Shown: positions 1 to 16,658 of the stretch, piece after piece
Position numbering within the stretch: the stretch's first letter is position 1
Layout of the letters: each line of letters begins with the position of its first letter
Assembly (NCBI GenBank): GCA_937124615.1
Contig: CAKZKR010000113.1
Location: forward strand, 1,292 to 65,291
From: an uncultured bacterium
GTDB lineage: Bacteria > Hydrogenedentota > Hydrogenedentia > Hydrogenedentales > Hydrogenedentaceae
DNA length: 64,000 bases
Direction of reading: 5' to 3'
Position numbers and translations under genes: made by a program
Notes under the pieces: model-generated
Told to the model about the DNA's origin: nothing
The model's database searches: none
Seen by the model: only the letters and a program-made list of their open reading frames with translations

Positions 1-3000
1 GACGTTACTATTCCGATTGAGGTTTCGGGCGTAGGGACAATTAATGTGCGAATAACAATTACGGATACAAATGTTTGTGATTCGGTTCGAAATTTTGCAG
101 AAGGGAATGTCCGCCCAGGCCAGTTCTCAACGCAGAGTACACGATTAGCCGTTTCCGGGACCACAGGAAACTTGAATAACGATGGCAGGCTGAATTTCAA
201 TACATATCAAGATGTATTTATCAATTTGAATAATATCTATGGTTCCGTTGCTCAAGGGAATGCGGAATGGGCCTTGCGTGAGGATATATTCCCACCCTCA
301 TTATGGCTGGAAACACAGCCCGTAGGCAGGACCAGCCCGCCGTTAACCTATGGTCAGGATAGTTGGACTTTAAGTGTAGCAGTAGATAACGGTGATGGAA
401 TGATATGGACAGTAAATAATCTTCCTCCGACGGCCCCCCGGTTTAATTATCAGTGGTATTATGGAAGTAGTTCGGGTAATGTTACTACACCTGTTTCGGG
501 TGGAAATGTTAGGGTTCTGGCCATCAATCCGGTGAACTGGATTGGTTCGCGGTTCTTCCGTTGCTTGATAGCGGACCCGTATACCAAAGCGTCGACTTAC
601 TCCAACACGGTTGAGGTAGTCGTCCAGGCACCACCGATTATTATTACCCAACATCCGACTGTAAATCCGACACCACCGATAATGGCATTAAACCCATTTT
701 CAATTACATGCAATGCGACGCAGACAGCCGGAACATTAAGTTATCAATGGCAGATTGACCGCACATTTACGGGAAGTAATTACCAAAATGTTTCCGATGG
801 GAACAACGATAATGTATATAATGTGAGTTCTGCTACTGCAAATGATGCAGGACTGTATCGCTGTGTTATCACTTCTCTAACCTTTGGTAATGATGCAATT
901 ACGGCTTCGGTAGGTGTGCAAGTGAATACGCCGATACCCGTTGTAACGGAACAGCCGGTGGGTGCAATGATAAATATTGGTGGAAATCATGTGTTCCAGT
1001 GCAATGGTGATATAAACCCGGGGGGTGGTGGTGACCTAATCTTCCAGTGGGAGAAAGGTCGAGTGGCTTATGGGTCGCCAATTCTGGGTCCGGGACCTGT
1101 GCAATTAGCAATTGTGAACGCTCAGCCGATGAATACGGGATGGTATCGTTGCAAAATCACCTCGAATACCTACGGAAGTTTTGTATATACTTCAGAGGTC
1201 TATTTGGGTGTTGGTGTTCCGACGGGTGCGGTGTTCCGCGTAGATAAGATGGCCCCGAGACCGGGTGGAGTAGAAGATGGATTAACATGGGAAACAGCGT
1301 TTGATACGATACAAGAAGGTATAGATGCGGCGGCAGCAGAAGGTGGTGGTGAAGTCTGGGTCGCCGGTGGTCCCAATGGTGGTGGATACATATATAATGA
1401 GTTGCGGACGGTTCCATGGGGAGCCCCTGCGTATGTAGAAGGTTCATTGATATTAGAAAGCAATGTGCAAGTATATGGTGGATTTGAAGGCTATCATGGT
1501 TCTCAAGAAATAATTCGTGTAGAGCGAGGAGTCCGTCGTTCTATTACCATTATTGATGGTTCTGTTTCCCGAGGTGGACAGCCCGCATACCATGTCGTAG
1601 TAGTAGGAGGAGCCACCGAACCTGCGGTGAATGTGCGTTTGGATGGATTTGACATCCGTGGAGGCCGTGCTACAGGTGTCGCAGGCGATTACCATACCTG
1701 GCGTGGAGCTGGAATCTATAATTGGGGTTCCAGTCCAACCATTGCTAACTGCACTTTCTATAACAATATTGCAGCGGTTTCAGGTGGTGCTATATCGAAT
1801 GAGTCCAACGGGACCTACTATGCAAATGCTCAAATTATTAACTGCGTGTTCTATCAAAATACCGCACAGCGAGGAGCGGATAGCGCGGGTAATCCCATCC
1901 GTGGTGGTGGTGCGATATTTAACAATGGGGCAGACCCATCTATTAAGTTCTGCACCTTTGTTAGTAACAGTGTAGGTGCGGGTGGAAGTATGTATGGCAC
2001 GAGTAGTTCTGCTATCTTTAACTTTAATACAGTGGGCACAGGACAAATCCACAGTTCTATCTTCTGGCAAAATTCGCCGGGATGTGTAGAGACCTTATGT
2101 CCTGCAGGCAATCCAGCATGTGCTGGTTTACAGATTATTGAGTCCGATATATCACAAACTGTAGACCCTGTGTTTGTTTCTATTCCGCCGGAATTCAAGT
2201 TATCACCCGGATCACCGTTTGTGGATGCATCTACATTGACCAATCCGAATTTTGATATTCAAGGAGTTCCGAGACCTCAAGATACCGCTTCAGACCGTGG
2301 TGCCTATGAAACGGTGAAGCAGGCGATGACGGTTGCATGCAATAATATTAGTGTCAATTTAGACGACACAGGAAATGCAACGGTAAATGCAAGTTCGTTG
2401 TATAATAGCACAGGTAGCAGTATCCCCGGTGGATTGTGGAAATTGTTGGTAAATGGTTCTCCTACATTCAATCTAACTTGTGCGAATATCCCATCTACTC
2501 AACGGACTCTGACAGCTATTGACTATGCCGGCAATATCGCCACATGCCAGGCTAATATTACAGTAAATGATATAACTCCACCAGATGCCGTCTGTGCAAG
2601 TATTACGGTATATCTGAATGAAAATGGTGAATACACACTAACTGCCGGAGAGTTGGACGGCGGTAGCACGGACAATTGTGGTCCATTGAGTTTCAGCATA
2701 CCGCCTATAACTTATACCTGTGCAAATGTTGGACAAAATCAGACATTGTTGACCGTAAGAGATGGTGCAGGATTAGAGGATACTTGTCTGGCAACGATTA
2801 TTGTTCAAGATAATCGGCTACCTACTGTAGTGACCAAGAATATCGTGGTAGATTTGGATGAAATGAATCAAGCGACGATAACTCCTGCAGATGTGGATAA
2901 TGGCACATCGGATAATTGCGGTATTGACCGTCTTGAATTAAGCCGGAGCACCTTTGGTTGTGATGACCGCATTGTTCCTCAGACAGTGACATTGACTGCA

Positions 3001-4476
3001 TACGATGTGAATGGTAACTCTGCGTCTGCGCCCGCTCAAGTGACGGTGCGAGATGTGAAGAAACCGCAAATTACATTACGCGGAGCCTCTTATATGGTCC
3101 TTGTGGCAAATGTTGATTGCTATATTGAAGAAGGGGCCTTCTGGACGGATAATTGCGACGGTACCGGCGAAGCAGTTATCGGTGGTGATACTGTGCCGAC
3201 CAATTGTCCACTGTTACCTTCAGATGAAGGCGTATATACAGTAACTTATAACTACACAGATTTGAGTGGAAATTCCGCGGACGAAGTTACGCGTGTAGTG
3301 AAAGTGATAGTCAATCAACCGCCAGTAATTACACTATTGGGTGATAACCCGAGGGTCATCTCTTGTAAAGAAGAGTATATAGAACCGGGTTATATAGCGT
3401 TAGACCCAGAAGATGGCGATTTGACAGAAGAAGTAATCGTAACCAGCGATTTGAATAATCAAGAGCCTGGTACCTATCAGATTGAATACAAGGTTACAGA
3501 CCGCGACTTAGAAAATCCGCAAACCACAATTGTGTATAGAACCGTTGTAGTTGTGGATAATGATGATCCGACGGTTATATTGTCCGGTCGGAATCCATTG
3601 CCATGGCGGTTAGGCACACCTTGGAGTGAGCCGGGTTATACTGCGATAGACCCATGCTGGGGCGATGTGACAGTCCTAACAGAGGTGGTAGGTGTAGTAG
3701 ATGTGAATACTCCAGGAATGTATGTGATTACCTATACGCCGAAAGATTACAGTGGTCGCAGTGGAACGCCTGTAGAGAGAGAAGTACATGTTGGCGAGTT
3801 CTTCTCGTTCGTAGCCCATCCGCAGAATACCGATGCATATGTAGATTCCGCTCCGTTTGATTTGAAGGCAACTTTCAGTGGCGGTATCTTCATACCCGGA
3901 TATAATTCCTATGAATGGTTCCGTGGTACAAGCTCGGTAGAGACGGGCCCAGTTACAGAGAATACGGTATCGCTAACAGTTAACCCGAGCACATTGTCGC
4001 CGGGCTCCTACTTCTACAGTGTGCGGATAGAGGACCTTGAAGGTTCGAGGACATCGAATCAAGCAAGAGTACGGATTGCCAATCATTTGGCTCTGGCTGA
4101 GCCGATACCGGATGCGGAAGTGGTTCCGGGTGACCGGTTCTCTATGACGGTTACCGTAACAGGTGGTATCGGTCAATTGAGTTATCAGTGGCAAAAGTCT
4201 GATGAGAGTGGTGGGAAAGCCTGGGTTAATCTGACAGATGGTGGAAATATCTCAGGTTCGTCCACAAATACGCTTGTATTCAACCCATTCACAGAAGAAG
4301 ACCCCGGCACCTATCGTTGTGTCATATCTGATGAATTGACAGATATGATTTACTCCAATAATGTGGTGTTGACGAAAGGTTCCGGTATCCCTGTGGCCGG
4401 TGCGGTCGGTATAGCGTTGGTCAGTGCGTTGAGTGCATTGGCCGGTGTGTTTACACTGCGGAGACGGCAACGCTAA
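1..4476 (+). CDS. Large multidomain surface protein, 5' end outside the window: Ig-like domains, right-handed beta-helix, HYR-like repeats, DUF5011-like Ig repeats, C-terminal sorting signal
   Basis: Frame 1 is open from base 1, upstream of the listed GTG at 46. Ig motifs (YQW...DAGLYRCVI); DGLTWETAFDTIQEGIDAA and GGAIxN beta-helix motifs; about 3 C.NI.V.LD...DNC repeats; about 3 P.ITL.G...EPGY.A.D repeats; tail GIPVAG-hydrophobic-RRRQR. Confidence 0.85.
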   Translation, partial: DVTIPIEVSGVGTINVRITITDTNVCDSVRNFAEGNVRPGQFSTQSTRLAVSGTTGNLNNDGRLNFNTYQDVFINLNNIYGSVAQGNAEWALREDIFPPSLWLETQPVGRTSPPLTYGQDSWTLSVAVDNGDGMIWTVNNLPPTAPRFNYQWYYGSSSGNVTTPVSGGNVRVLAINPVNWIGSRFFRCLIADPYTKASTYSNTVEVVVQAPPIIITQHPTVNPTPPIMALNPFSITCNATQTAGTLSYQWQIDRTFTGSNYQNVSDGNNDNVYNVSSATANDAGLYRCVITSLTFGNDAITASVGVQVNTPIPVVTEQPVGAMINIGGNHVFQCNGDINPGGGGDLIFQWEKGRVAYGSPILGPGPVQLAIVNAQPMNTGWYRCKITSNTYGSFVYTSEVYLGVGVPTGAVFRVDKMAPRPGGVEDGLTWETAFDTIQEGIDAAAAEGGGEVWVAGGPNGGGYIYNELRTVPWGAPAYVEGSLILESNVQVYGGFEGYHGSQEIIRVERGVRRSITIIDGSVSRGGQPAYHVVVVGGATEPAVNVRLDGFDIRGGRATGVAGDYHTWRGAGIYNWGSSPTIANCTFYNNIAAVSGGAISNESNGTYYANAQIINCVFYQNTAQRGADSAGNPIRGGGAIFNNGADPSIKFCTFVSNSVGAGGSMYGTSSSAIFNFNTVGTGQIHSSIFWQNSPGCVETLCPAGNPACAGLQIIESDISQTVDPVFVSIPPEFKLSPGSPFVDASTLTNPNFDIQGVPRPQDTASDRGAYETVKQAMTVACNNISVNLDDTGNATVNASSLYNSTGSSIPGGLWKLLVNGSPTFNLTCANIPSTQRTLTAIDYAGNIATCQANITVNDITPPDAVCASITVYLNENGEYTLTAGELDGGSTDNCGPLSFSIPPITYTCANVGQNQTLLTVRDGAGLEDTCLATIIVQDNRLPTVVTKNIVVDLDEMNQATITPADVDNGTSDNCGIDRLELSRSTFGCDDRIVPQTVTLTAYDVNGNSASAPAQVTVRDVKKPQITLRGASYMVLVANVDCYIEEGAFWTDNCDGTGEAVIGGDTVPTNCPLLPSDEGVYTVTYNYTDLSGNSADEVTRVVKVIVNQPPVITLLGDNPRVISCKEEYIEPGYIALDPEDGDLTEEVIVTSDLNNQEPGTYQIEYKVTDRDLENPQTTIVYRTVVVVDNDDPTVILSGRNPLPWRLGTPWSEPGYTAIDPCWGDVTVLTEVVGVVDVNTPGMYVITYTPKDYSGRSGTPVEREVHVGEFFSFVAHPQNTDAYVDSAPFDLKATFSGGIFIPGYNSYEWFRGTSSVETGPVTENTVSLTVNPSTLSPGSYFYSVRIEDLEGSRTSNQARVRIANHLALAEPIPDAEVVPGDRFSMTVTVTGGIGQLSYQWQKSDESGGKAWVNLTDGGNISGSSTNTLVFNPFTEEDPGTYRCVISDELTDMIYSNNVVLTKGSGIPVAGAVGIALVSALSALAGVFTLRRRQR

Positions 4477-4543: not shown

Positions 4544-4579
4544 GTCTGACAGGTCCGACTCGTCGGACCTGTCAGACCA
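4544..4579. repeat. Perfect 16-bp inverted repeat built from four 9-mers (GTCnGACnn), REP-like
   Basis: GTCTGACAG GTCCGACTC GTCGGACCT GTCAGACCA; arms 4544-4559 and 4562-4577; overlaps the helicase stop codon. Confidence 0.85.
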
Positions 4580-7286
4580 TACAAATCTGTTGTAGAGGCA
4601 GGTCCAACATAAATCCGCGCTTAGGGATGGTGCGGAGCCGTTCTTTCCACTCTGGGGACACTTCACACAACTTCCGTAAAAGCATGCATTTCTGAAAAGC
4701 CATTTGTGCATCTTCAACAATAATATCATTCCATAATTCTTTGTAAACTTTCTCGTAAGACACACAGCAACCCGCATTTTGAGCTAATAAACAGAGTAAT
4801 CGATATTGTTTTTCAGGGACACGGATTTTCTTCCCTTCCACCCAGACTTCACCCGGACGCTTCATATCCAGAACTAAAAGATACTTTGTCTCTTCTTTCG
4901 GTGTGTCAGTTTTTGTTGAAGAAAACGAAGAGAGAGGTTTCGGTTTTCTTTCTTCGACGGGATCATAGGAACGCTCTGGGGTAATGGGTTTATCTGCTTG
5001 TAAAAAGAATGGTTCCTGTGATGCTTTTGGCTTGAATACGGGAGAAGACGAAGTAGAGTTGAATTTAAAGTTTTTTGACCTTATCTTTTGAGCGTGCTGT
5101 TTTAGTTTAAGAATAGTGGTTGAGGGAAGATATCTGGAGAGGATTGATGAAGAAGTTTTAAGAACGCTTTCTATATCTTTTATCCCGTTGGCCAGCAAGG
5201 TAAGTATTTGAGAACGGGAAAGGAGCCCTTCAAATATCCGAGCAAGCGATAAGCCCTCTACAGGGATTCCCCAGCGGACTTGTTCGGCTAAGATTCGGAA
5301 TTCATCAGGATGATTGATAGACATCAGTTCCGCTAATTGCACCAGAACATCTAAAATCCACGAAATACGGGCACCTGCCTGTACCACCTGCCCCGCAGAG
5401 ACTGCAAATTCTTCTTCTATTTCGGACAGGGACTTTCCGCAAATCCAACTGCGAAGAACAAAAGCAATTTTTAGTCCTTTTGATTCATGTAGATGGGGTT
5501 CAGCCAATCCCTGATGGAACTTCTGGATAGGGGTTATTACATCCCAAGGGGTTCGCAATGGAGTTTCCCGCAATAATTGTAGGTATGTCTTGGATTGAAA
5601 TTCCTGTAAGGAAAATTCAAATTGAGGTAGCCATGCGTCCGGTGTAAGCGATGCGGTCAAAAGAATATCCAGTTCATCGCGTTCTCTTCCTCGGACCGTG
5701 TTTAGCCATTGTTCTAATTGTTCTAAGGTATCCGGAGATACTCCTTTTGTAGCAATAATCACACCTCGAGGAGTGAGTCCGTATCTGTATAAGTTCTTCT
5801 TTATGCAGAAGCCTCTACGAAAACAAGAGTCCATAAAGTCTGTTGCCAGAGTAGAAAATAAGTTAGGTTCGCGGTTCATTGAAATTTGTTCGTTTGCCCT
5901 CCAGGAAGACCTTAAAAATTCTTCTAAATGTTCCATAGTTACAGATTGGTAGGAGGCGATGACACTAAGCAAGGGCGTGTTCAAACCGGCTATGTTATTA
6001 GGAGGGAATGAGAGGGGAAAGGATTGCTGAATATACCATGAATATAATTGGTTTTTCTCTTCCTCGCTGGTGGCGATAAGGATAGCACGGGCAGGCTGGT
6101 TTGAGTATCCGTAACGGCCGGCTCTACCCGCCATGTTTTCATACTCTGGAAGGGATAGGGGAGAGGGACCGCCATTTCCTTTTTTGTCTGCGTAGTGCCA
6201 CTTCTCATGAGAGATAATGACATTGTCCACGGGTAGATTCAACCCTTTGGATAATGTGCTGGTGGCGACGAGAACACGAAGTTCTCTATGGCGGAAGGCT
6301 TGTTCTACGATTTGTCGTTCTTCGGGAAGTAAATCGCTGTAATGGAAGCCAATACCGTGTTGGAATGCGTGGAGTAGGGCATCACGAGCGCGAGTAGGTT
6401 CCAATGATTTTATTTGCTCCACGGATTGTTCCGCAGGGGGAAGGTGTAAGTATTCAGCCAGTTCCCATGCGAGGGCTCGGACTTCGTTGCGGGTTTTCAT
6501 GAAAATGAGACAGGTCTCTTCTTCCTGCGTCAATTTTTGGATTGTCTGGAAAAGAAGAGGAGACTCGGAAAGGGACTCATCAAAGAAAGGTTCCTCTTTT
6601 GGATTTCCATGTTCATCCATGTAATAAAAGGTGCCATTGTATAATATCCCCTTTTTTAGGGGAACAGGCCGAATGTTCGAATGGATTAACACTGCTTTCA
6701 TCCATTGTGCAATAGGGGCTGGTTCCGGAAGACAGGCGGATAAGGCTATACAACGGGCAGAAGAACCGAGACAACGCGTTAATAGAAAATCGGCAGTTGT
6801 TCCACGCTCCGAGTCAAATATCAGGTCGATATCATCAAAGACGATAAGTTGAATTTTGTCCAAAATGGAGGGTTGTCGGGCAATTAACTGGAACATCTTT
6901 TCGTAGACTACTACTGCAATATGAAATCTTCCTTGTTCTAATAAGGGGTCGTGATGACGATAGTCGCTGGTGGAGATTAGGATTTGTAAGCCATATTTTT
7001 TGTGTCGGTTCCGTAGAGTTCGAAACATCTCTTCTGCCTGAACGCGTAAAGGAACAAGATAAACAGATTTTCTATGTTGAAAACTGGTATGAAGCATGAC
7101 TAACTCTGCGAGGAAGGTTTTGCCGGTACTGGTAGGAGCGTGAATGAGGAGATTTTTCTCAGAAAATAGCATTTTATTTTTGATGATTTGTTCTTGCACA
7201 GGTAATAGTTCGTGACAGAAGTTTTGTAAATCCTTTAATAACAGTTCGGAAAATCCGGATTGAGACAAGTATTCAGTGATATTCAT
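4572..7286 (-). CDS. Hel308/Ski2-like SF2 helicase with C-terminal OmpR/PhoB-type winged-helix domain
   Basis: APTSTGKT (I), FDDID (II, atypical), LSAC (III), RPVPL, GIGFHYSDL, VATSTLSKGLNLP (V), MAGRAGR (VI), Hel308-like C-terminal helical/HhH region, then EKQYRLLCLLAQN...LWND...RTIPKRGFML. RBS GGAGA. Confidence 0.85.
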   Translation of the reverse strand: MNITEYLSQSGFSELLLKDLQNFCHELLPVQEQIIKNKMLFSEKNLLIHAPTSTGKTFLAELVMLHTSFQHRKSVYLVPLRVQAEEMFRTLRNRHKKYGLQILISTSDYRHHDPLLEQGRFHIAVVVYEKMFQLIARQPSILDKIQLIVFDDIDLIFDSERGTTADFLLTRCLGSSARCIALSACLPEPAPIAQWMKAVLIHSNIRPVPLKKGILYNGTFYYMDEHGNPKEEPFFDESLSESPLLFQTIQKLTQEEETCLIFMKTRNEVRALAWELAEYLHLPPAEQSVEQIKSLEPTRARDALLHAFQHGIGFHYSDLLPEERQIVEQAFRHRELRVLVATSTLSKGLNLPVDNVIISHEKWHYADKKGNGGPSPLSLPEYENMAGRAGRYGYSNQPARAILIATSEEEKNQLYSWYIQQSFPLSFPPNNIAGLNTPLLSVIASYQSVTMEHLEEFLRSSWRANEQISMNREPNLFSTLATDFMDSCFRRGFCIKKNLYRYGLTPRGVIIATKGVSPDTLEQLEQWLNTVRGRERDELDILLTASLTPDAWLPQFEFSLQEFQSKTYLQLLRETPLRTPWDVITPIQKFHQGLAEPHLHESKGLKIAFVLRSWICGKSLSEIEEEFAVSAGQVVQAGARISWILDVLVQLAELMSINHPDEFRILAEQVRWGIPVEGLSLARIFEGLLSRSQILTLLANGIKDIESVLKTSSSILSRYLPSTTILKLKQHAQKIRSKNFKFNSTSSSPVFKPKASQEPFFLQADKPITPERSYDPVEERKPKPLSSFSSTKTDTPKEETKYLLVLDMKRPGEVWVEGKKIRVPEKQYRLLCLLAQNAGCCVSYEKVYKELWNDIIVEDAQMAFQKCMLLRKLCEVSPEWKERLRTIPKRGFMLDLPLQQICMV

Positions 7287-7316
7287 GGTTTATTCTCCCA
7301 AAAAAGTTTTAACTAT

Positions 7317-7345
7317 ATTATAGTGAAAATTTTTTCACTATTCAA
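7317..7345 (-). promoter_or_regulatory. sigma70 promoter of the helicase gene with a palindromic operator across the spacer
   Basis: Minus strand TTGAAT (7345-7340), 17 bp, TATAAT (7322-7317). Inverted repeat ATAGTGAAAA-TT-TTTTCACTAT at 7320-7341. Confidence 0.75.
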
Positions 7346-7459: not shown

Positions 7460-8224
7460 ATGGCAGATAAAATTGATTATCAAATTTTTGGGGATGATAT
7501 GCAGGCCGTGCAGATAACCTTGGACCCGGGCGAATCCGTCTTTGCAGAGGCGGGAGCAATGCTTTCAATGGATGATGGAATTGAGATGCAGACGAGTGCG
7601 GGAGGAATTATGAAGGGGCTGAAACGTGTGCTAACCGGCGAGAGTTTCTTCATTACGAATTTTTATAATCAGGGCCATCAACGGGCAAGTGTAATTTTTT
7701 CGGCACCATATCCGGGGAAGATTATTCCGATTGATTTGAAGGTGTTTGAGGGGACTTTTATTTGCCAGAAGGATGCGTTTTTGTGTGCGGCGGGAGGAGT
7801 GGAAGTAACACCGACATTGGTGAAGAAGATAGGGGTTGGTTTGTTTGGCGGGGAAGGGTTTGTTTTGCAGAAAATTGTGGGTGATGGGTTTGCTTTTGTG
7901 CATATTGGCGGGACGGTGTTGGAGCGGGAATTATCGGGGGGAGAGACGCTTCGGGTGGATACGGGTTGTATTGCGGGCTTTACCTCTACCATTAAATACG
8001 ACATTCAGTTTATGTCAGGTTTTAAGAATATGTTATTTGGAGGGGAAGGAATGTTCCTTGCCACTTTGCAAGGACCGGGGAAGGTCTATCTTCAAACTTT
8101 GCCTTTTTCGCGTCTTGCGGACCGTATTATTATAGCCTCTCGTAAAAATCGTGAGGAAACGAATATCGGCGGAGGAGGCAAAGGGTTGTTGGGACGAATG
8201 ATAGGGGGAGGTGGTGGCTTCTAA
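7460..8224 (+). CDS. AIM24 / TIGR00266 family protein
   Basis: L.PGE.V.AEAGAM, GESFF, APYPGKI, CQKDAFL, FGGEG repeats, LRVDTGC, GPGKVYLQTLPFSRLA. Confidence 0.9.
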   Translation: MADKIDYQIFGDDMQAVQITLDPGESVFAEAGAMLSMDDGIEMQTSAGGIMKGLKRVLTGESFFITNFYNQGHQRASVIFSAPYPGKIIPIDLKVFEGTFICQKDAFLCAAGGVEVTPTLVKKIGVGLFGGEGFVLQKIVGDGFAFVHIGGTVLERELSGGETLRVDTGCIAGFTSTIKYDIQFMSGFKNMLFGGEGMFLATLQGPGKVYLQTLPFSRLADRIIIASRKNREETNIGGGGKGLLGRMIGGGGGF

Positions 8225-8225
8225 T

Positions 8226-8765
8226 ATGGAACAGTGGAAAGATTCAAAGGTAATTTATCAGGGAAAAATTGTAAATGTCCGGACGGGGGAAGTTTCATTA
8301 GAGGATGGAAAGAGTGCGTTTCGAGAGGTGATAGAACATCCGGGGGGTGTTTGTGTCGCGATGCTGGATAAGGACGAAGTTATATTGGTTCGACAGTTTC
8401 GTATTGCAATTGGTAAATATATTTTGGAGGCGCCGGCAGGTAAGTTGGAAGGGAAAGACGACCCGATGGAACGGGCACGAAAGGAAATGGAGGAGGAAAC
8501 GGGGTATCGAGCGGGGATATTTGAATATTTAGGGTCTGCTTATTCATCGGTGGGATATTGTTCGGAGATAATACATTTTTATTTTGCTACTGATTTAGAG
8601 TATGTTGGGACGAAACCGGATGATGACGAGAATATAGAAATAGTAAAGATGCCGTTGAAGGTGGTGAAGGAGAAGTTACGCACTTTTTGGTTTGAGGATA
8701 GCAAGACATATATTGCTTTACAGGCAATGCTTTATCGTCTTCAAGGAAGGGAGAGTAACTGTTGA
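8226..8765 (+). CDS. NUDIX hydrolase, ADP-ribose pyrophosphatase (NudF-like)
   Basis: REVIEHPGGV, LVRQFR, EAPAGKLE...ARKEMEEETGY Nudix box. ATG at 8226 preferred over GTG at 8211. Confidence 0.9.
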   Translation: MEQWKDSKVIYQGKIVNVRTGEVSLEDGKSAFREVIEHPGGVCVAMLDKDEVILVRQFRIAIGKYILEAPAGKLEGKDDPMERARKEMEEETGYRAGIFEYLGSAYSSVGYCSEIIHFYFATDLEYVGTKPDDDENIEIVKMPLKVVKEKLRTFWFEDSKTYIALQAMLYRLQGRESNC

Positions 8766-8908
8766 GAGGAAAAGAGTTTTTTATATGGTATAAGGAATGC
8801 TTGCTGTAATCCAGTTTAACATCTAACTCACCATGAGGCTCTGTGTTCTCTCTGTGGTTCTTTTTTTTCACCGCGGTAAGCAGGAACAAAGAAGATATGT
8901 TTATTTTT

Positions 8909-9499
8909 CTATTTTTTTCTGCTTCAATGCCGACAGTGAGAACTACTTCATCTCCGATTTGTGTAGGTAAATATTTTGTCATACCGAAATCGCTTCTTTT
9001 GATAGTAAAAACGGCTTCAAAGCCGATTCGTTCCTCATGGTTTCTTCCTTTTCCGGCACCGACCCATTTTGCTTCCAATTCAATAGGTTTATCTACACCA
9101 AGCAGGGTTAGTATCCCTTTTATTCGATAACGATTTTCTTCTATATGTTCCCACGATGTGCTTTTGAATTTGGCTTCAGGGAATTTCTCGACATCGAAAA
9201 AATCGGGACTTCGTAGATGTTCATCTCGTTTATTGTTTAATGTATTTATACTGTTTGTTTTGACTGTAATTGTAATGGATGCGTTTTCTACATGTTCTGG
9301 GTCAAATTGTATTTTCACCAGAAATCTCGCTGAAAGCCCCATATGCAGGACTGATAGCTAAGTGTAGTACCCTAAACCACACTGTGGAATGTACAGGGTC
9401 CATTTTATAACTGGTTACATTTGCACTCAGACCTGATGATGTAGTGATAAGCAAGAAAAAAATATATAAAATACACCTATTATACTTTGTTGCAAACAT
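8909..9499 (-). pseudogene. yceI: YceI family lipid/polyisoprenoid-binding protein with two apparent single-base frameshifts (copy 1)
   Basis: Signal peptide plus YKMDPVHSTVWFRVLHL...GAFSEISG in one frame, then IQFDPE...SINT.N.KRDEHLRSPDFFDVEKFP...RSDFGM in another. One extra A in the run at 9312-9315. One A missing in the run at 8912-8918, which would otherwise give IEAEKK-TAG. Confidence 0.8.
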
Positions 9500-9582
9500 T
9501 TTCTATCCCTTTCTTTTTTTACTTATGAAACAGATAGATGAAAAAAAATATTTCATGCGAGAGAGCAAAAAAGGAAATATTG

Positions 9583-11046
9583 TTATTGTACGGTATATCT
9601 TGTTTTTACATAGATGAAAATAAGAGAAGCAAGGAGACCTGTTAGTAAGAACAAAGTAAGGGAAAATGTGGCAGGGACTTTATAGTCCGGTTCCATATCA
9701 ATGGGATAAAAATGGGCTTTTAAACGAATGTCTTTTGTTATTTCCACAGTCAAGTTCTTTCGAGATGTACAAAAATCTCCTTCCCATCCTGTAAAAATAT
9801 ACCCTGGTTTTTCCTTCACCTGAATATTAACAATATCCCCCTCAGTGTATCCGCAATCCTTCTTTGGGATAATGATTATTTCGTCTTCAAGATGGATATT
9901 AGAAGTAACTTGTAGTTTCAGGTTTTGTTTTAATTTATACCGCATAATCCGAGGGATTACCCCTCGTGCGAGACTGTATCCAACCCAGGATTTTTCATTG
10001 TCTCGCCAATCCGCTCTTTTGCTCGCTATCGAGGCAGAGAAATTATCTGTAATTCCTTCAAGGATGCCCAACGGGATAATATAAAGATCCTTTGTAACAA
10101 AGGTTAACTCTATTCCAGCATATCCTGTACGATTCTCTGTTATAAGTAACCAACCAATATTTGGATATTCAATAGCACTCCGCACTTCGTTATAGGAGGT
10201 GCGTCCAATAACAATGACATCTAAAGGCTCTGTTCGTGGAGATATAACCAAATGAGCACCAAGATTATTGATTCTATCGTCTGTAGCCCAACAGATATAA
10301 TCTTCAGTAAACCAAAAAGTTGTTAGGCGAAATAAAGATTGTGTTTTTAACGCTGGAGGAAGAGATGGGTCGAGGTTGTAATCCGTAACATCCAACCATG
10401 TATCTCCATCATCTTTGCTTTTGAAGATTTTGGATTCTTGGCGTCTATCACCTGAGGATAAATACCAATGTCCTGTGTAGGGGTCAACCTGAATGGTATG
10501 AAAATGACGAACTTCTGGGGATTCGGAGCCACGCGCCCGTTGATAAAATACAATATCCCAAGAGGCACCTCCATTTTTAGAACGGAATACACGGGCATAT
10601 GGGTCTGTATCCCTGCAATATTCGGCTATCATTATAACCCCATCTTTTTCATCGACACTCCATGTTCCCAACCAACCCAAGACTTCACCTGTTTGGCTCC
10701 ACCTTCTTTGGACTTTATTAAAATACCATAATTCTCTATAGGGGTTACTTATAGATAAAAGAGAACCGTTTTGAGTTGTGTATACATGATTAGAAAAAAA
10801 GTTTTGAAGGTAAATGGTTTCAACTATGTTCCCGTCATGAGTTATTTTTCTCAGGATGTTATTTTGAGGATAATTGAACACCCATATATTATTATCAGAG
10901 GTATGTTCTCCAAATTGATAGGAATTGTCAAAGTTGTCTTGATTTACTTCGAGTGTGTAAGGGGTATCATCGATAAAGAAGCAAAATTGATAATTAATAC
11001 CTCTAAAGAGAATAAGTGTTAATGTTAACAGAGTAGCACTCATCAA
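9583..11046 (-). CDS. Exported Asp-box (BNR) beta-propeller protein with InlB B-repeat-like domain and C-terminal VPA-TM-basic tail (copy 1)
   Basis: Asp-boxes SKNGGASW and SKDDGDTW; RHFHTIQVDPYTG; KPGYIFTGWEGD B-repeat-like motif; tail VPATFSLTLFLL...YVKTR. Confidence 0.7.
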   Translation of the reverse strand: MMSATLLTLTLILFRGINYQFCFFIDDTPYTLEVNQDNFDNSYQFGEHTSDNNIWVFNYPQNNILRKITHDGNIVETIYLQNFFSNHVYTTQNGSLLSISNPYRELWYFNKVQRRWSQTGEVLGWLGTWSVDEKDGVIMIAEYCRDTDPYARVFRSKNGGASWDIVFYQRARGSESPEVRHFHTIQVDPYTGHWYLSSGDRRQESKIFKSKDDGDTWLDVTDYNLDPSLPPALKTQSLFRLTTFWFTEDYICWATDDRINNLGAHLVISPRTEPLDVIVIGRTSYNEVRSAIEYPNIGWLLITENRTGYAGIELTFVTKDLYIIPLGILEGITDNFSASIASKRADWRDNEKSWVGYSLARGVIPRIMRYKLKQNLKLQVTSNIHLEDEIIIIPKKDCGYTEGDIVNIQVKEKPGYIFTGWEGDFCTSRKNLTVEITKDIRLKAHFYPIDMEPDYKVPATFSLTLFLLTGLLASLIFIYVKTRYTVQ

Positions 11047-11165
11047 ATAGAAGTATTCCGTTCAGTAGTTTTTTATCCTTTTTATAAATAATTACAAAAC
11101 ATCTTAGTGCCACTGCTAAAAATATATAAAAAGAACAAACTTATTTTCAAATTATTTGCAAATCT

Positions 11166-11207
11166 AAAAAGAAACCCTGCCTTTGCCTTTTACTCGCTCA
11201 GGCAGGG
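11166..11207 (-). terminator. Intrinsic terminator after the prepilin-like gene (copy 1)
   Basis: CCCTGCCT / AGGCAGGG 8-bp stem (11175-11182 / 11200-11207), followed on the minus strand by TTTCTTTTT. Confidence 0.6.
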
Positions 11208-11235
11208 CCATAATGATGAAACTCAATAAAGAAGA

Positions 11236-12273
11236 CTACGTTGCATCAAACAAGGACATGATGTTAGCCACACCTTGATTGATGGGTTGTTTTGTTGGAT
11301 AGCGAATGAATTCTACATGCCCATCCAGATATAACACATTGCATCCACCTGGTATATGGTTGAACAGTACGGTGGTTCCACCTGCACCTAATTGGTCTAA
11401 CATAATGAAAATTTCACTTTGTGCTTGGGCTGTTGCAGAAGGATTATTAATATCCGTAATCATGAACCGTTCAATACCTTCCCGAAGGCGATATACCGTA
11501 TTTGAACCACCATTTCCATAGCCTACGAGTAGAGAACCAGAAACATCTCCATCAACAGCCGCATTCAAATCAGCAATCTGAGCCGGAGTTGGTTGCCCGT
11601 GAGAAGATGCCGTTGTCATCGCAGCTACACCATTAGGATGATTTAGTGCCATTTGGGCAATTGCAAGGGGCAATTGTGCCGCAACAAGTGTGGTTCCTGT
11701 TAATGGAGGACCTCCAATTAGGTTAACAAATGTTTGAACTTCAGGAGGGAGAGAATTAAGGGGAACTAAATCGTTGGGATTGTCTCCCATCCGGTCAAAG
11801 ACCCAGCCGAAGTAAGCATAACTGGCGTCTATAACATTGACTCCTGTTCCTCCACCTAAATAGTAGCCAAAATGAAAATCATCTGGCGTAATTCCCAATA
11901 CAGGGAAGGAATCCCCTTTCAGGGTATCATTTACTGTATCTTGAGCATCCGAAGGGCAGATAACAATAGATGGATCCGTCAAATACTCTGGATAAATAGC
12001 CTTTACCTTTGGTCCTGCTGCTATAAATAAATTCCATTGTCCGTTATCTTCTCTCTGTGCTGCTTCTAACTCTAATGGGGGGAAGCGTTCTCCTTTCGAT
12101 TCATTAGAATACATTTTGAAAACAAGTCCCCATTGTTTCAGATTGTTCTGGCAACTGGAACGACGTGCCGCTTCACGAGCACGGGCTAATGCAGGCAATA
12201 ATATCGCCGCGAGAATACCTATAATTGCTATGACAACCAGCAATTCAATGAGTGTAAAACCATGTTTTTTCAT
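11236..12273 (-). CDS. DUF1559-type prepilin N-terminal cleavage/methylation protein with H-X9-DG C-terminal motif (copy 1)
   Basis: MKKHG^[42 protein letters not shown]; [19 protein letters not shown]; RBS AGGAGGT before ATG 12273. Confidence 0.92.
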
Positions 12274-12374
12274 AAAATACCTCCTTCTTACTTGTAAAAG
12301 TACTCCATTATTTAAGATATAATTGAGAGAAATATTAATTCGATTCACCTCCTTTCTATCATTTCTCTAATAAA

Positions 12375-12403
12375 ATTATAATACAAATATTAATAAATGT
12401 CAA
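12375..12403 (-). promoter_or_regulatory. Perfect-consensus sigma70 promoter of the prepilin-like gene (copy 1)
   Basis: Minus strand TTGACA (12403-12398), 17 bp, TATAAT (12380-12375). Confidence 0.85.
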
Positions 12404-12434
12404 TGTTTTTTTGTATAAAACAAAGACCATTTTA

Positions 12435-12640
12435 GTTCGGAGATAATACATTTTTATTTTGCTACTGATTTAGAGTATGTTGGGACGAAACCGGATGATG
12501 ACGAGAATGTAGAAATAGTAAAGATGCCGTTGAAGGTGGTGAAGGAGAAGTTACGCACTTTTTGGTTTGAGGATAGCAAGACATATATTGCTTTACAGGC
12601 AATGCTTTATCGTCTTCAAGGAAGGGAGAGTAACTGTTGA
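12435..12640 (+). pseudogene. 3' fragment of the NUDIX gene created by the duplication junction
   Basis: Matches 8560-8765 except an ATA>GTA change; lacks the start codon and Nudix box. Confidence 0.85.
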
Positions 12641-12783
12641 GAGGAAAAGAGTTTTTTATATGGTATAAGGAATGCTTGCTGTAATCCAGTTTAACATCTA
12701 ACTCACCATGAGGCTCTGTGTTCTCTCTGTGGTTCTTTTTTTTCACCGCGGTAAGCAGGAACAAAGAAGATATGTTTATTTTT

Positions 12784-13374
12784 CTATTTTTTTCTGCTTC
12801 AATGCCGACAGTGAGAACTACTTCATCTCCGATTTGTGTAGGTAAATATTTTGTCATACCGAAATCGCTTCTTTTGATAGTAAAAACGGCTTCAAAGCCG
12901 ATTCGTTCCTCATGGTTTCTTCCTTTTCCGGCACCGACCCATTTTGCTTCCAATTCAATAGGTTTATCTACACCAAGCAGGGTTAGTATCCCTTTTATTC
13001 GATAACGATTTTCTTCTATATGTTCCCACGATGTGCTTTTGAATTTGGCTTCAGGGAATTTCTCGACATCGAAAAAATCGGGACTTCGTAGATGTTCATC
13101 TCGTTTATTGTTTAATGTATTTATACTGTTTGTTTTGACTGTAATTGTAATGGATGCGTTTTCTACATGTTCTGGGTCAAATTGTATTTTCACCAGAAAT
13201 CTCGCTGAAAGCCCCATATGCAGGACTGATAGCTAAGTGTAGTACCCTAAACCACACTGTGGAATGTACAGGGTCCATTTTATAACTGGTTACATTTGCA
13301 CTCAGACCTGATGATGTAGTGATAAGCAAGAAAAAAATATATAAAATACACCTATTATACTTTGTTGCAAACAT
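12784..13374 (-). pseudogene. yceI: YceI family protein, frameshifted (copy 2)
   Basis: Same as copy 1, including both frameshifts. Confidence 0.8.
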
Positions 13375-13457
13375 TTTCTATCCCTTTCTTTTTTTACTTA
13401 TGAAACAGATAGATGAAAAAAAATATTTCATGCGAGAGAGCAAAAAAGGAAATATTG

Positions 13458-14921
13458 TTATTGTACGGTATATCTTGTTTTTACATAGATGAAAATAAGA
13501 GAAGCAAGGAGACCTGTTAGTAAGAACAAAGTAAGGGAAAATGTGGCAGGGACTTTATAGTCCGGTTCCATATCAATGGGATAAAAATGGGCTTTTAAAC
13601 GAATGTCTTTTGTTATTTCCACAGTCAAGTTCTTTCGAGATGTACAAAAATCTCCTTCCCATCCTGTAAAAATATACCCTGGTTTTTCCTTCACCTGAAT
13701 ATTAACAATATCCCCCTCAGTGTATCCGCAATCCTTCTTTGGGATAATGATTATTTCGTCTTCAAGATGGATATTAGAAGTAACTTGTAGTTTCAGGTTT
13801 TGTTTTAATTTATACCGCATAATCCGAGGGATTACCCCTCGTGCGAGACTGTATCCAACCCAGGATTTTTCATTGTCTCGCCAATCCGCTCTTTTGCTCG
13901 CTATCGAGGCAGAGAAATTATCTGTAATTCCTTCAAGGATGCCCAACGGGATAATATAAAGATCCTTTGTAACAAAGGTTAACTCTATTCCAGCATATCC
14001 TGTACGATTCTCTGTTATAAGTAACCAACCAATATTTGGATATTCAATAGCACTCCGCACTTCGTTATAGGAGGTGCGTCCAATAACAATGACATCTAAA
14101 GGCTCTGTTCGTGGAGATATAACCAAATGAGCACCAAGATTATTGATTCTATCGTCTGTAGCCCAACAGATATAATCTTCAGTAAACCAAAAAGTTGTTA
14201 GGCGAAATAAAGATTGTGTTTTTAACGCTGGAGGAAGAGATGGGTCGAGGTTGTAATCCGTAACATCCAACCATGTATCTCCATCATCTTTGCTTTTGAA
14301 GATTTTGGATTCTTGGCGTCTATCACCTGAGGATAAATACCAATGTCCTGTGTAGGGGTCAACCTGAATGGTATGAAAATGACGAACTTCTGGGGATTCG
14401 GAGCCACGCGCCCGTTGATAAAATACAATATCCCAAGAGGCACCTCCATTTTTAGAACGGAATACACGGGCATATGGGTCTGTATCCCTGCAATATTCGG
14501 CTATCATTATAACCCCATCTTTTTCATCGACACTCCATGTTCCCAACCAACCCAAGACTTCACCTGTTTGGCTCCACCTTCTTTGGACTTTATTAAAATA
14601 CCATAATTCTCTATAGGGGTTACTTATAGATAAAAGAGAACCGTTTTGAGTTGTGTATACATGATTAGAAAAAAAGTTTTGAAGGTAAATGGTTTCAACT
14701 ATGTTCCCGTCATGAGTTATTTTTCTCAGGATGTTATTTTGAGGATAATTGAACACCCATATATTATTATCAGAGGTATGTTCTCCAAATTGATAGGAAT
14801 TGTCAAAGTTGTCTTGATTTACTTCGAGTGTGTAAGGGGTATCATCGATAAAGAAGCAAAATTGATAATTAATACCTCTAAAGAGAATAAGTGTTAATGT
14901 TAACAGAGTAGCACTCATCAA
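13458..14921 (-). CDS. Asp-box beta-propeller surface protein (copy 2)
   Basis: Same translation as 9583-11046. Confidence 0.7.
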   Translation of the reverse strand: MMSATLLTLTLILFRGINYQFCFFIDDTPYTLEVNQDNFDNSYQFGEHTSDNNIWVFNYPQNNILRKITHDGNIVETIYLQNFFSNHVYTTQNGSLLSISNPYRELWYFNKVQRRWSQTGEVLGWLGTWSVDEKDGVIMIAEYCRDTDPYARVFRSKNGGASWDIVFYQRARGSESPEVRHFHTIQVDPYTGHWYLSSGDRRQESKIFKSKDDGDTWLDVTDYNLDPSLPPALKTQSLFRLTTFWFTEDYICWATDDRINNLGAHLVISPRTEPLDVIVIGRTSYNEVRSAIEYPNIGWLLITENRTGYAGIELTFVTKDLYIIPLGILEGITDNFSASIASKRADWRDNEKSWVGYSLARGVIPRIMRYKLKQNLKLQVTSNIHLEDEIIIIPKKDCGYTEGDIVNIQVKEKPGYIFTGWEGDFCTSRKNLTVEITKDIRLKAHFYPIDMEPDYKVPATFSLTLFLLTGLLASLIFIYVKTRYTVQ

Positions 14922-15040
14922 ATAGAAGTATTCCGTTCAGTAGTTTTTTATCCTTTTTATAAATAATTACAAAACATCTTAGTGCCACTGCTAAAAATAT
15001 ATAAAAAGAACAAACTTATTTTCAAATTATTTGCAAATCT

Positions 15041-15082
15041 AAAAAGAAACCCTGCCTTTGCCTTTTACTCGCTCAGGCAGGG
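15041..15082 (-). terminator. Intrinsic terminator (copy 2)
   Basis: Duplicate of 11166-11207. Confidence 0.6.
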
Positions 15083-15110
15083 CCATAATGATGAAACTCA
15101 ATAAAGAAGA

Positions 15111-16148
15111 CTACGTTGCATCAAACAAGGACATGATGTTAGCCACACCTTGATTGATGGGTTGTTTTGTTGGATAGCGAATGAATTCTACATGCCCATC
15201 CAGATATAACACATTGCATCCACCTGGTATATGGTTGAACAGTACGGTGGTTCCACCTGCACCTAATTGGTCTAACATAATGAAAATTTCACTTTGTGCT
15301 TGGGCTGTTGCAGAAGGATTATTAATATCCGTAATCATGAACCGTTCAATACCTTCCCGAAGGCGATATACCGTATTTGAACCACCATTTCCATAGCCTA
15401 CGAGTAGAGAACCAGAAACATCTCCATCAACAGCCGCATTCAAATCAGCAATCTGAGCCGGAGTTGGTTGCCCGTGAGAAGATGCCGTTGTCATCGCAGC
15501 TACACCATTAGGATGATTTAGTGCCATTTGGGCAATTGCAAGGGGCAATTGTGCCGCAACAAGTGTGGTTCCTGTTAATGGAGGACCTCCAATTAGGTTA
15601 ACAAATGTTTGAACTTCAGGAGGGAGAGAATTAAGGGGAACTAAATCGTTGGGATTGTCTCCCATCCGGTCAAAGACCCAGCCGAAGTAAGCATAACTGG
15701 CGTCTATAACATTGACTCCTGTTCCTCCACCTAAATAGTAGCCAAAATGAAAATCATCTGGCGTAATTCCCAATACAGGGAAGGAATCCCCTTTCAGGGT
15801 ATCATTTACTGTATCTTGAGCATCCGAAGGGCAGATAACAATAGATGGATCCGTCAAATACTCTGGATAAATAGCCTTTACCTTTGGTCCTGCTGCTATA
15901 AATAAATTCCATTGTCCGTTATCTTCTCTCTGTGCTGCTTCTAACTCTAATGGGGGGAAGCGTTCTCCTTTCGATTCATTAGAATACATTTTGAAAACAA
16001 GTCCCCATTGTTTCAGATTGTTCTGGCAACTGGAACGACGTGCCGCTTCACGAGCACGGGCTAATGCAGGCAATAATATCGCCGCGAGAATACCTATAAT
16101 TGCTATGACAACCAGCAATTCAATGAGTGTAAAACCATGTTTTTTCAT
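15111..16148 (-). CDS. DUF1559 / H-X9-DG prepilin-like protein (copy 2)
   Basis: Same as 11236-12273. Confidence 0.92.
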
Positions 16149-16249
16149 AAAATACCTCCTTCTTACTTGTAAAAGTACTCCATTATTTAAGATATAATTG
16201 AGAGAAATATTAATTCGATTCACCTCCTTTCTATCATTTCTCTAATAAA

Positions 16250-16278
16250 ATTATAATACAAATATTAATAAATGTCAA
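16250..16278 (-). promoter_or_regulatory. Perfect-consensus sigma70 promoter (copy 2)
   Basis: TTGACA-17-TATAAT, duplicate of 12375-12403. Confidence 0.85.
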
Positions 16279-16658
16279 TGTTTTTTTGTATAAAACAAAG
16301 ACCATTTTAATCATAATTAATATAATTCTTTAGACATATAAAAGGTTCTACGATTTTTTTATTTTTTACCTTCTTAAAAGTGTATTTTGAGATTACAAAC
16401 TTTTAGAAAAAACATTATAAGAATTATCACAAATAAGATATTATGTGAATTATTAAATATGTTTAAATCTAATTAATATATAAATTATATAAATAGAGTT
16501 TTCTGAATGATATTTATTTCCAAAAACACTAATTTGTAAGAGAGAATATTGTTTTAAAAAACTCTATTCCGAAATAAATAGTTTGAAAGAATGAATATGT
16601 AAATTGTATAATTCTCTAACTTTTATTATTGAGAAAGGATATTTTTAAGGAGTATAAT

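Follow-up and report, generated by a model that had tools for sequence, protein, structure and literature searches.

The window analysed here is a 64,000-nucleotide stretch of DNA from an uncultured bacterium of the family Hydrogenedentaceae (GenBank assembly GCA_937124615.1, contig CAKZKR010000113.1, positions 1,292 to 65,291 of the forward strand). Its phylum is named Candidatus Hydrogenedentes or Hydrogenedentota by the sources. On the minus strand the window encodes a 904-residue protein in which a complete Hel308-type helicase is followed by a disordered linker and a winged helix-turn-helix (wHTH) of the OmpR/CadC type. The gene looks like a member of the LexA/SOS regulon and would be among the best-conserved targets of the predicted operator. 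The protein may be a damage-induced helicase-sensor that is wired to a transcription-factor-type DNA-binding output. This reading is preferred tentatively, at somewhat less than an even chance. It is favoured because the wHTH belongs to a class of transcription-factor domains, because some relatives carry a kinase in its place, and because the wHTH is the invariant part of the protein in the genus of the window.

Architecture of the helicase-wHTH protein and its relatives

The open reading frame (ORF) begins with ATG, has its stop codon at 4572-4574, and is present in one copy in the source genome (Table 1). Pfam detects DEAD (82.1 bits), Helicase_C (46.9 bits) and Helicase_dom4_arc (28.7 bits). 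The AlphaFold2 model of the full-length protein, built with 87 aligned homologues, has a mean predicted local distance difference test score (pLDDT) of 87.1. Its best Foldseek matches are the Hel308/Hjm structures 2va8, 2zj8 and 2p6r, as well as 2zj5 (E 6e-41 to 5e-36, template modelling score by target 0.84-0.88). The next matches are the helicase domain of DNA polymerase theta (Pol-theta) and Brr2. With phmmer, residues 26-712 are aligned with Hjm at E 1.5e-62. The Foldseek matches and the alignment together reveal the five-domain Hel308 fold: two RecA-like domains, winged helix (WH), ratchet and helix-hairpin-helix (HhH). RecA-like domain 2 also holds the motif IVa-like sequence GFHYSDL and, in the model, a beta-hairpin with strands at 361-365 and 372-376. 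The archaeal Hel308 models of NCBIfam are aligned to residues 24-739, all with scores under the equivalog cut-offs (NF040935, 224.3 bits against 1200; NF002654, 296.6 against 887; NF001308, 241.7 against 1216; NF002251, 217.7 against 891). No arch, KOW or DSHCT domain is found above the Pfam threshold. Family proteins are labeled "DEAD/DEAH box helicase" in public records.

The C-terminal domain is supported by sequence and by structure. Trans_reg_C is detected at residues 818-894 with 28.2 bits, above the Pfam gathering cut-off of 26.2. The last 110 residues, when modelled separately, reach a pLDDT of 91.9. This model resembles the DNA-binding domains of BaeR, ArlR, RpaA, CadC and ToxR (E 2e-6 to 4e-5 by Foldseek). 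It matches 71 PDB chains at E <= 0.001, and those listed are OmpR-family domains. A profile of 18 wHTH domains, compared with PDB, retrieves CadC (E 7.6e-8), ToxR and response regulators including ArlR. Two conserved stretches, W-G-D..VE..Q...QK and PKRGF, fall at the positions of the recognition helix and the wing. Pfam finds no Response_reg match in the protein; since it has no receiver domain, the helicase-wHTH protein is not a response regulator.

Most of this layout had been anticipated in the earlier note from the sequence alone. The 904-residue ORF with Hel308-like architecture agrees with Pfam, AlphaFold2 and Foldseek. The motif readings (an intact Walker A, DDID, SAC and ENMAGRAGR) are all present in the ORF. 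The proposed Trans_reg_C-like C-terminus, whose lack of any wHTH match would have counted against the proposal, has clear matches in both sequence and fold. Two details need to be corrected. The end coordinate 7345 is the first base of the promoter -35 hexamer, and the ORF ends at 7286. The linker, described as about 90 residues long, has 58 residues in the model, and residues 673-740 are the folded domain 5. Pairwise identity among homologues is 7-11% within the linker stretch.

Table 1. Features of the helicase gene and its promoter in the window.
Feature	Coordinates	Strand	Basis
Coding sequence, 904 aa + stop	4572..7286	-	ORF reading; single copy in genome
RecA-like domain 1, approx. residues 25-205	6672..7214	-	Pfam DEAD 29-188, Hjm/Hel308 alignment, model; boundaries approximate
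Walker A APTSTGKT, residues 50-57, within RecA-like domain 1	7116-7139	-	
Motif II DDID, residues 151-154 (in VFDDIDLI), within RecA-like domain 1	6825-6836	-	
Motif III SAC (in ALSAC), within RecA-like domain 1	6732-6740	-	
RecA-like domain 2, approx. residues 206-420	6027..6671	-	Pfam Helicase_C 301-393, model secondary structure
Motif VI ENMAGRAGR (in YENMAGRAGR), within RecA-like domain 2	6114-6140	-	
Internal winged-helix domain 3 of Hel308 fold, approx. residues 421-515	5742..6026	-	Fold match over ~750 columns, alignment
Helical ratchet domain 4, approx. residues 516-672, invariant W643	5271..5741	-	Pfam Helicase_dom4_arc 603-672
Helix-hairpin-helix domain 5, approx. residues 673-740	5067..5270	-	PRK02362 alignment to residue 739; model helices 676-743
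Disordered Ser/Thr/Pro/Lys-rich linker, residues 741-798	4893..5066	-	pLDDT <50
C-terminal OmpR/CadC-type wHTH, residues 799-904	4575..4892	-	Pfam, PDB profile, model, Foldseek
-35 hexamer TTGAAT	7340..7345	-	29-nt promoter string 7317-7345; hexamers in orthologues
16-bp palindrome GTGAAAAAATTTTCAC (read on - strand), putative LexA (SOS) box	7323..7338	.	Fills 17-nt -35/-10 spacer
-10 hexamer TATAAT, 17 nt after -35	7317..7322	-	TAT... after box in 38 orthologous promoters

The fusion is widespread. In an alignment of 120 homologues (31-100% identity, after one row identical to the query was dropped), 112 have precomputed PF00486 annotation. A profile search of 1.84 billion cluster representatives returned 4658 proteins at E <= 1e-30. 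Among the best 150 of these, the wHTH is aligned directly in 74. Another 61 are long proteins without direct wHTH alignment, among which Pfam finds Trans_reg_C in two, sigma-54 AAA+ in one and a histidine-kinase ATPase in one. When the tails of those 61 are clustered, groups of 35, 13 and 5 result; the groups of 35 and 5 match the wHTH profile with hhalign probabilities of 96-97%, and the group of 13 does not. As judged from these alignments, proteins of the bacterial family as a rule end in an OmpR-type wHTH or in a divergent tail that resembles one.

In one clade the output is replaced. It comprises nine clusters (P0145 and P0396-P0403) from several sources, six of them full-length with ~1065 residues, in which a HATPase_c domain stands in place of the wHTH and all helicase motifs are intact. 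The tail shows stretches that resemble the N, G1, F and G2 boxes of histidine kinases, and P0145 has a candidate His pair for autophosphorylation at 833-834. In the FastTree phylogeny, this clade is nested with support of 98-100 among relatives with wHTH-like tails. In metagenome scans, a single-protein query found no relative and an alignment query found five loci. At one of them (L197, metagenome contig, 1-3806), the stop codon of the helicase-kinase gene lies in a 4-nt overlap with the start of the next gene, which encodes an NtrC-type regulator with receiver, sigma-54 AAA+ and HTH_8 domains.

Because wHTH and kinase tails are found on the same motor, the helicase module stands where a signalling protein has its input domain, and it does so with two or more kinds of output. 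A recognised output or transmitter lies C-terminal to a candidate input module and is swapped among relatives, as is expected of signal-transduction proteins. The kinase-for-wHTH sister clade and the regulator at L197 lend comparative support to the earlier suggestion of a helicase module that controls a regulatory output. A caspase-type peptidase fusion is another output swap on a Hel308-like core: a structural neighbour in the Atlas is a cluster of 362 Hel308-like helicases of ~1000 residues, mostly from Pseudomonadota, with Peptidase_C14 in 87%.

Active-site signature and constraint in the genus of the window

In the phmmer alignment with solved Hel308/Hjm chains, the motifs of the window protein lie opposite DEIH, SAT, FHHAGL and (H/K)QMxGRAGR. 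F/YHHAGL is named as motif IVa of Hel308 in the section of PMC10484726 that bears on it. The window protein carries none of the Hel308 features DExH, SAT, motif VI Q and F/YHHAGL. Of the 120 homologues, 16 (42-100% identical) form the clade of the window, leaving 104 others. Motif II is DD(I/V)D in all 16, whereas it is DExE in 103 of the 104 and DELK in one. Motif III is SAC, SSC or SAS in the clade and SAV in the other 104. In motif VI, N or S replaces the Q of Hel308 in both groups alike, and relatives in the phylum read ENMxGRAGR. Neither DExH nor the motif VI Q is found in any of the 120. Motif IVa is GFHYSDL in the window against the family consensus AFHNADL, with H315 and D318 invariant. 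In the best 150 of the 4658 representatives, motif II is DExQ in 127, DExH in 7, DExE in 6, DExD in 3, DDxD in 2 and another sequence in 5. The changes at motif II position 4, at motif III and at motif VI thus mark, on sequence evidence, a large bacterial branch of Hel308 that keeps the catalytic Glu.

At the loci compared, DDxD is fixed in 8/8 of the genus of the window, and DELE is found in 12/12 of other genera. DDID is restricted to this genus; with its fixation in all the clade proteins and genus loci, it is neither a private change of the window nor a sequence error, the two explanations that had been set against it. The description of the catalytic motifs as non-canonical stands only in part. 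Three of the four are family-wide, being present in 104 of the 120 homologues and in most of the 150 representatives, and do not indicate a degenerate enzyme, and the Glu-to-Asp change in DDID is genus-specific.

In Ski2-like/DEAH helicases, the Glu of motif II with the Gln and Arg of motif VI positions the attacking water, as described in the portion of 10.1101/758169 on the catalytic centre. Accordingly both the family-level Gln-to-Asn change and the genus-level Glu-to-Asp change touch the catalytic centre. Of these two, only the genus-level change would replace the catalytic base itself. No paper on a DEAD-to-DDAD mutant was found in the literature search.

Other residues of the motor are retained. 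In 87 homologues, R388, R391, W614 and W643 are invariant, and no fewer than 90% of rows keep W363 and Y365. W643 is aligned with the Trp of 'taeW' in Hjm and in Hel308 of A. fulgidus.

The genus also differs in how strongly the domains are constrained. Columns conserved at >=95% in the other 104 homologues were scored for retention in the genus clade. Retention is 42/74 in RecA-like domain 1, 45/67 in RecA-like domain 2, 2/12 in the WH domain, which is the most diverged, 10/17 in the ratchet and 16/17 in the wHTH. RecA protein identity was used as a clock for the divergence of the motor. Six between-family pairs with RecA 75-82% identical have motors 59-64% identical, and within-genus pairs with RecA 74-78% identical have motors 43-46% identical. 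The stem branch of the genus clade is 0.83 substitutions per site in FastTree. The motor in the genus evolves ~1.7 times faster than in other lineages, with the wHTH held constant. It appears that in the lineage with Asp for Glu the motor is evolving faster or was remodelled. The retention of the Walker A Lys, both Arg of motif VI, the aromatic residues of the hairpin and the Trp of the ratchet points to a change of tuning rather than decay.

Promoter box, distribution and neighbouring genes

The palindrome of Table 1 lies within a core promoter. The exact 29-nt promoter string at 7317-7345 is matched in 0/100 shuffles. Hexamers of the TTGA(A/C)(T/A) type are found at the same -35 place in 38/39 orthologous promoters. 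The palindrome itself, GTGAAAA-N2-TTTTCAC, has its single exact site in the 3.37-Mb source genome at the helicase promoter. The shorter form, STGAA-N6-TTCAS, has 10 exact sites in the same 3.37 Mb; four lie immediately before recA, lexA, the helicase gene and a gene for an IMS/Y-family polymerase. A radical-SAM+HhH gene is preceded by a near-match with two mismatches to GTGAAAA-N2-TTTTCAC. These five genes make up the small predicted regulon of the source genome, with sites on contigs C35, C71, C97 and C4 (loci L040, L041, L037 and L039) and at window positions 7323-7338.

The box is conserved in the phylum, as GTGAA...TTCAC in the genus of the window and CTGAA...TTCAG in other genera. In five genomes from four other genera, CTGAA-N6-TTCAG is found upstream of lexA in 5/5 and of recA in 5/5. 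At the helicase promoter, the box lies between a TTGAC-like -35 and a TAT... -10 in 38/39 genomes (26 exact, 35 with <=1 mismatch); the 39th locus is cut by a contig end. As background, the source genome has 0.0015 exact and 0.046 one-mismatch sites per 500 nt. When two mismatches are allowed, 863/2000 random 500-nt pieces match, so that this threshold carries no information; only exact and one-mismatch counts and the promoter position were used. Upstream of recA, the box is found in 28/28 genomes (24 exact), five of which have no helicase match. Because of these five genomes, the binder of the box is not the wHTH of the helicase itself, and autoregulation through the palindrome is ruled out.

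According to the passages of PMC8565304 on these points, palindromes such as CTGT-N8-ACAG are the binding sites of LexA dimers, and an SOS regulon typically includes recA, dinB and radical-SAM repair genes. In view of these palindromes and SOS members, and of its presence at recA and lexA, we infer that the box is the LexA operator of the phylum. The helicase gene has this operator in common with lexA and recA of the same genome. In the helicase promoter it lies across the core elements, and orthologues keep it. Repression of the helicase gene by LexA and its induction by damage are strongly predicted. The link to DNA damage that the earlier note had proposed is now indicated by the promoter box.

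Boxes are also found with some relatives outside the phylum. An orthologue from Armatimonadia has a perfect CGAAC-N4-GTTCG between -35 and -10. A relative from Sumerlaeota has TAGAACATGTGTTCTA at the helicase and TAGAACACCAGTTCTA at its lexA. GAAC-N4-GTTC is a known type of LexA box. At two of the metagenome loci (L196 and L198), a common TGAACA(C/T)(A/T)TGT just after the -10 resembles a degenerate form of this box. A metagenome-assembled genome (MAG) labeled Nitrospirales (G137; loci L112, L184 and L192) has a DELD-type helicase and the Hydrogenedentota-type box CTGAA-N6-TTCAG at helicase, recA and lexA, and its label or binning may be questionable. No LexA-type box was found upstream of the relatives of the helicase in Smithellaceae and Myxococcales. 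The window contains a second exact STGAA-N6-TTCAS at 19461-19476 (GTGAAGTATCCTTCAC), inside a transglutaminase-like ORF (18071-19558). It is probably a chance occurrence, because 8/100 shuffles give two matches.

The helicase gene is present in 126/135 Hydrogenedentota genomes, including 81/86 high-quality genomes, and in 62/66 genera. Relatives are found in MAGs labeled Armatimonadia, Sumerlaeota, Nitrospirales, Myxococcota and Desulfobacterota, and also Coatesbacteria, Dehalococcoidia, Zixibacteria, Hymenobacter and others. In a FastTree phylogeny of 77 motor cores, the bacterial family forms one clade (support 100), separate from four archaeal Hel308 sequences. In two orthologues the reading frame is broken ahead of the wHTH part or inside it, and either a sequencing error or decay of the copy is possible in both. 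One (L018, G071) has a stop within the C-terminal stretch, and the other (L106, from an Armatimonadia MAG) has a 765-residue ORF though the match reaches residue 879.

RecQ-family matches (E <= 1e-30) are found in 97/135 genomes of the phylum, and most of these also carry the helicase; a phylum-wide role as RecQ substitute is thereby ruled out. A RecQ match is absent in all 10 genomes of the genus of the window (G000 and G049-G057), source genome included. RecG, Mfd and PriA are present in the source genome.

Divergent from the helicase gene lie genes for an AIM24-family protein (254 residues) and a NUDIX protein (184 residues), at 7460-8765 (+). This pair is kept in 6/8 genus loci (L001-L006) and not in other genera. 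Neighbours differ between genera, and no conserved operon partner was found beyond the genus at the 12 loci scanned. On the other side, and convergent with the helicase gene, lies a gene at 1-4476 (+) that is truncated at the start of the window. It encodes a surface protein of >1476 residues that has a hydrophobic anchor at its C-terminus and contains bacterial Ig-like and Ig-family domains. A tandem duplication with a period of 3875 bp occupies 8560-16310, and its first copy begins inside the 3' end of the NUDIX gene. A set of ORFs (251, 487 and 370 residues) is present twice in similar, not identical copies. The unit encodes a 487-residue protein with a weak InlB B-repeat match and a 370-residue type-IV-pilin-like DUF1559 protein.

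Readings of the protein and closest known systems

The sensor reading can be put as a sequence of steps. In the undamaged cell, a LexA dimer on the 16-bp palindrome in the -35/-10 spacer would keep the helicase gene off, a step strongly suggested by the promoter. After damage, RecA-stimulated cleavage of LexA would derepress the helicase together with recA, lexA, the Y-family polymerase gene and the radical-SAM/HhH repair gene. The N-terminal 740 residues would form a five-domain motor that binds ATP and threads single-stranded DNA (ssDNA) past the beta-hairpin and the ratchet helix. This engagement with ssDNA is suggested by the fold. Comparative architecture gives moderate grounds for the next step, in which engagement of the motor with ssDNA would control the wHTH on its 58-residue flexible linker. 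Several molecules might be loaded side by side on ssDNA, or the wHTH might be released from the helicase core. By either route, the protein would be a one-component, second-tier damage regulator. It may do repair work besides regulation in the manner of Ada, which combines the role of a regulator with repair work. In the genus of the window, the change from Glu to Asp and the faster evolution of the motor would fit an ATPase that serves sensing or proofreading and not processive unwinding.

Several observations weigh against this reading. All elements of the motor are conserved, as in a working helicase: the Lys of Walker A, the Ser of motif III, motif V, the motif VI Arg pair, the aromatic hairpin residues and the Trp of the ratchet. 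A disordered linker of 58 residues is a poor allosteric connector and, in the model, matches a simple tether. Most members of SOS regulons are repair enzymes. No DNA motif emerged as a target of the wHTH: upstream of the gene, only the LexA box and the core promoter are conserved, and this gives no sign of autoregulation by the wHTH. Among 22 neighbouring ORFs in 12 scanned loci, no conserved neighbour outside the genus is a candidate target. The response-regulator neighbour of the kinase form is known from L197, the only locus with downstream DNA. The Sigma54_activat fusion, P0137, is one sequence on one contig and may be an artefact of assembly or gene calling; as the only such case among 120 listed matches, it carries little weight.

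The protein could instead be a plain SOS-induced 3'-5' repair or recombination helicase of the Hel308 type. It would act at stalled forks, gaps and crosslinks, with a wHTH that, by way of the flexible linker, only anchors or targets it to duplex DNA and has no role in transcription; other repair helicases have accessory DNA-binding domains of this use. This is a serious possibility and a close rival of the sensor reading, though it too falls short of being probable. Hel308 and HELQ act in repair and recombination, as stated in the relevant part of PMC13623763. The complete fold with hairpin and ratchet, the ATPase and DNA-contact residues invariant in 87 homologues, and the predicted co-regulation with recA and the Y-family polymerase gene through their common box are all as expected of such an enzyme. 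The same is true of a near-universal, single-copy, vertically kept gene and of a long disordered linker, which is typical of a tether. However, the Trans_reg_C class is, to our knowledge, used almost only as the output of transcription factors. An anchor role also leaves the kinase transmitter and the adjacent response regulator in relatives unexplained, and in the genus of the window it is the motor, with its catalytic Glu replaced, and not the wHTH, that was loosened. The sensor and repair-helicase readings are not mutually exclusive.

It is improbable that the protein is a Ski2-like helicase acting on RNA polymerase or RNA:DNA hybrids. Damage would then bring it to R-loops or to transcription complexes that have stalled, and its wHTH would touch RNA polymerase or promoter DNA. 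Ski2-like helicases do include RNA and RNA:DNA helicases, and there are weak Pfam matches to the DSHCT and Suv3 DEXQ models. Mycobacterial Lhr is damage-inducible and unwinds RNA:DNA, according to the portion of PMC5758891 concerned with it, and OmpR-type domains contact RNA polymerase in solved activation complexes, as given in the titles of PDB entries matched by the wHTH. Nevertheless, in fold and sequence the protein is closest to DNA helicases (Hel308/Hjm and the Pol-theta helicase domain), and Brr2 ranks behind them. The arch, KOW and DSHCT domains all score under threshold, and nothing in the data is specific for RNA.

It is very unlikely that the protein is a damage-activated helicase that defends against phage in the manner of Hachiman (HamB) or a similar system. 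PADLOC HamB profiles do score up to 130 bits on the RecA domains and PDC-M23B 115 bits, the peptidase-fused Atlas cluster is a structural neighbour, and one locus of the kinase-fused clade is beside DUF2971 and RecD/UvrD-like genes, but the HamB matches are partial (residues 23-214 or 250-422, the generic helicase core), no HamA-like or other conserved partner is adjacent (the neighbours vary: surface protein, AIM24, NUDIX and others), a single-copy gene in 62 of the 66 genera is unlike the patchy defence genes, and the operator is held in common with recA and lexA.

If the sensor reading is extended to the family, it leads to a broader proposal, held a shade more cautiously than the reading of the window protein. 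Bacterial "signalling helicases" would be Hel308-fold ATPases that read ssDNA or damaged, possibly foreign, DNA and pass the signal to transcription through a wHTH or through a kinase and its NtrC partner. The wHTH form of Hydrogenedentota would be a LexA-controlled second tier in the response to DNA damage, and in the genus of the window the change from DExE to DDxD would have adapted the ATPase to a slow cycle like that of a sensor. There is a substantial chance that this is a new signalling principle. The earlier note had not recognised the architecture as a described system, and our literature search likewise found no description of a fusion of Hel308 with an OmpR-type wHTH. It also found no paper treating LexA and Hydrogenedentes together.

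If the sensor reading holds, a helicase motor would join the input modules of bacterial one- and two-component systems, as a bacterial counterpart of helicase-based nucleic-acid sensing. Even if the protein is a repair helicase, it belongs to an undescribed, widespread bacterial branch of Hel308 with its own signature (DExQ/DExE, SAV and motif VI N). Its gene would then be a core SOS gene of the phylum, in an SOS system without a description in the literature searched. The predicted LexA box STGAA-N6-TTCAS makes the regulon of the phylum testable and can be used for annotation. The Glu-to-Asp change, together with the constraint shift, is a natural experiment on what the ATPase is needed for.

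The most closely related characterized proteins are archaeal Hel308/Hjm, metazoan HELQ and the Pol-theta helicase-like domain. They share the five domains, the hairpin before motif VI and the ratchet Trp. In contrast to Hel308/Hjm, the window protein has DDID (DExE/DExQ in the family) for DEIH, SAC (SAV) for SAT, N for the motif VI Q, and FHYSDL (FHNADL) for F/YHHAGL at motif IVa. It adds the linker and the OmpR-type wHTH, is bacterial, and lies under a LexA-type box. OmpR effectors without a receiver, of the CadC/ToxR type, share the wHTH fold, with its N-terminal beta-sheet, three helices and C-terminal hairpin. Their wHTH is not joined to a helicase, whereas that of the window protein is joined to 740 helicase residues rather than to a receiver or a membrane/periplasmic sensor.

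In RIG-I-like receptors, the ATPase of a superfamily 2 (SF2) helicase serves to recognise nucleic acid, and an attached output domain passes the signal on. These receptors are found in eukaryotes, detect RNA and use CARD domains for output; the likeness to the window protein is an analogy only. DinG is a damage-inducible SF2 helicase of bacteria. Lhr is another, and it has a WH and a ratchet-like domain as in Hel308, according to the sections of PMC5758891 on its induction and structure. Unlike the window protein, Lhr and DinG have no OmpR-type wHTH; the ligase-associated Lhr-type model of NCBIfam gives the window protein 58.8 bits. A precedent for a motor turned regulator is the C-terminal cassette of Brr2, which is Hel308-like, binds adenine nucleotides without ATP hydrolysis and serves as a regulatory platform, as outlined in parts of 10.1101/758169 and PMC8220420. 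This cassette is eukaryotic, part of a tandem helicase and directed to RNA, whereas the window protein keeps all other ATPase residues.

The proposed mode of action has its precedent in PafBC of mycobacteria and DriD of Caulobacter, transcription factors activated by the ssDNA that damage produces (abstract-level accounts in PMC9186387 and PMC11804915). As far as these accounts describe them, a WYL domain senses ssDNA, the HTH is N-terminal and there is no ATPase. In the window protein, a helicase motor would take the place of the WYL domain. The likeness is one of mechanism, and no relationship in sequence is expected. DriD is described there as SOS-independent, whereas the helicase gene of the window appears to be controlled by LexA.

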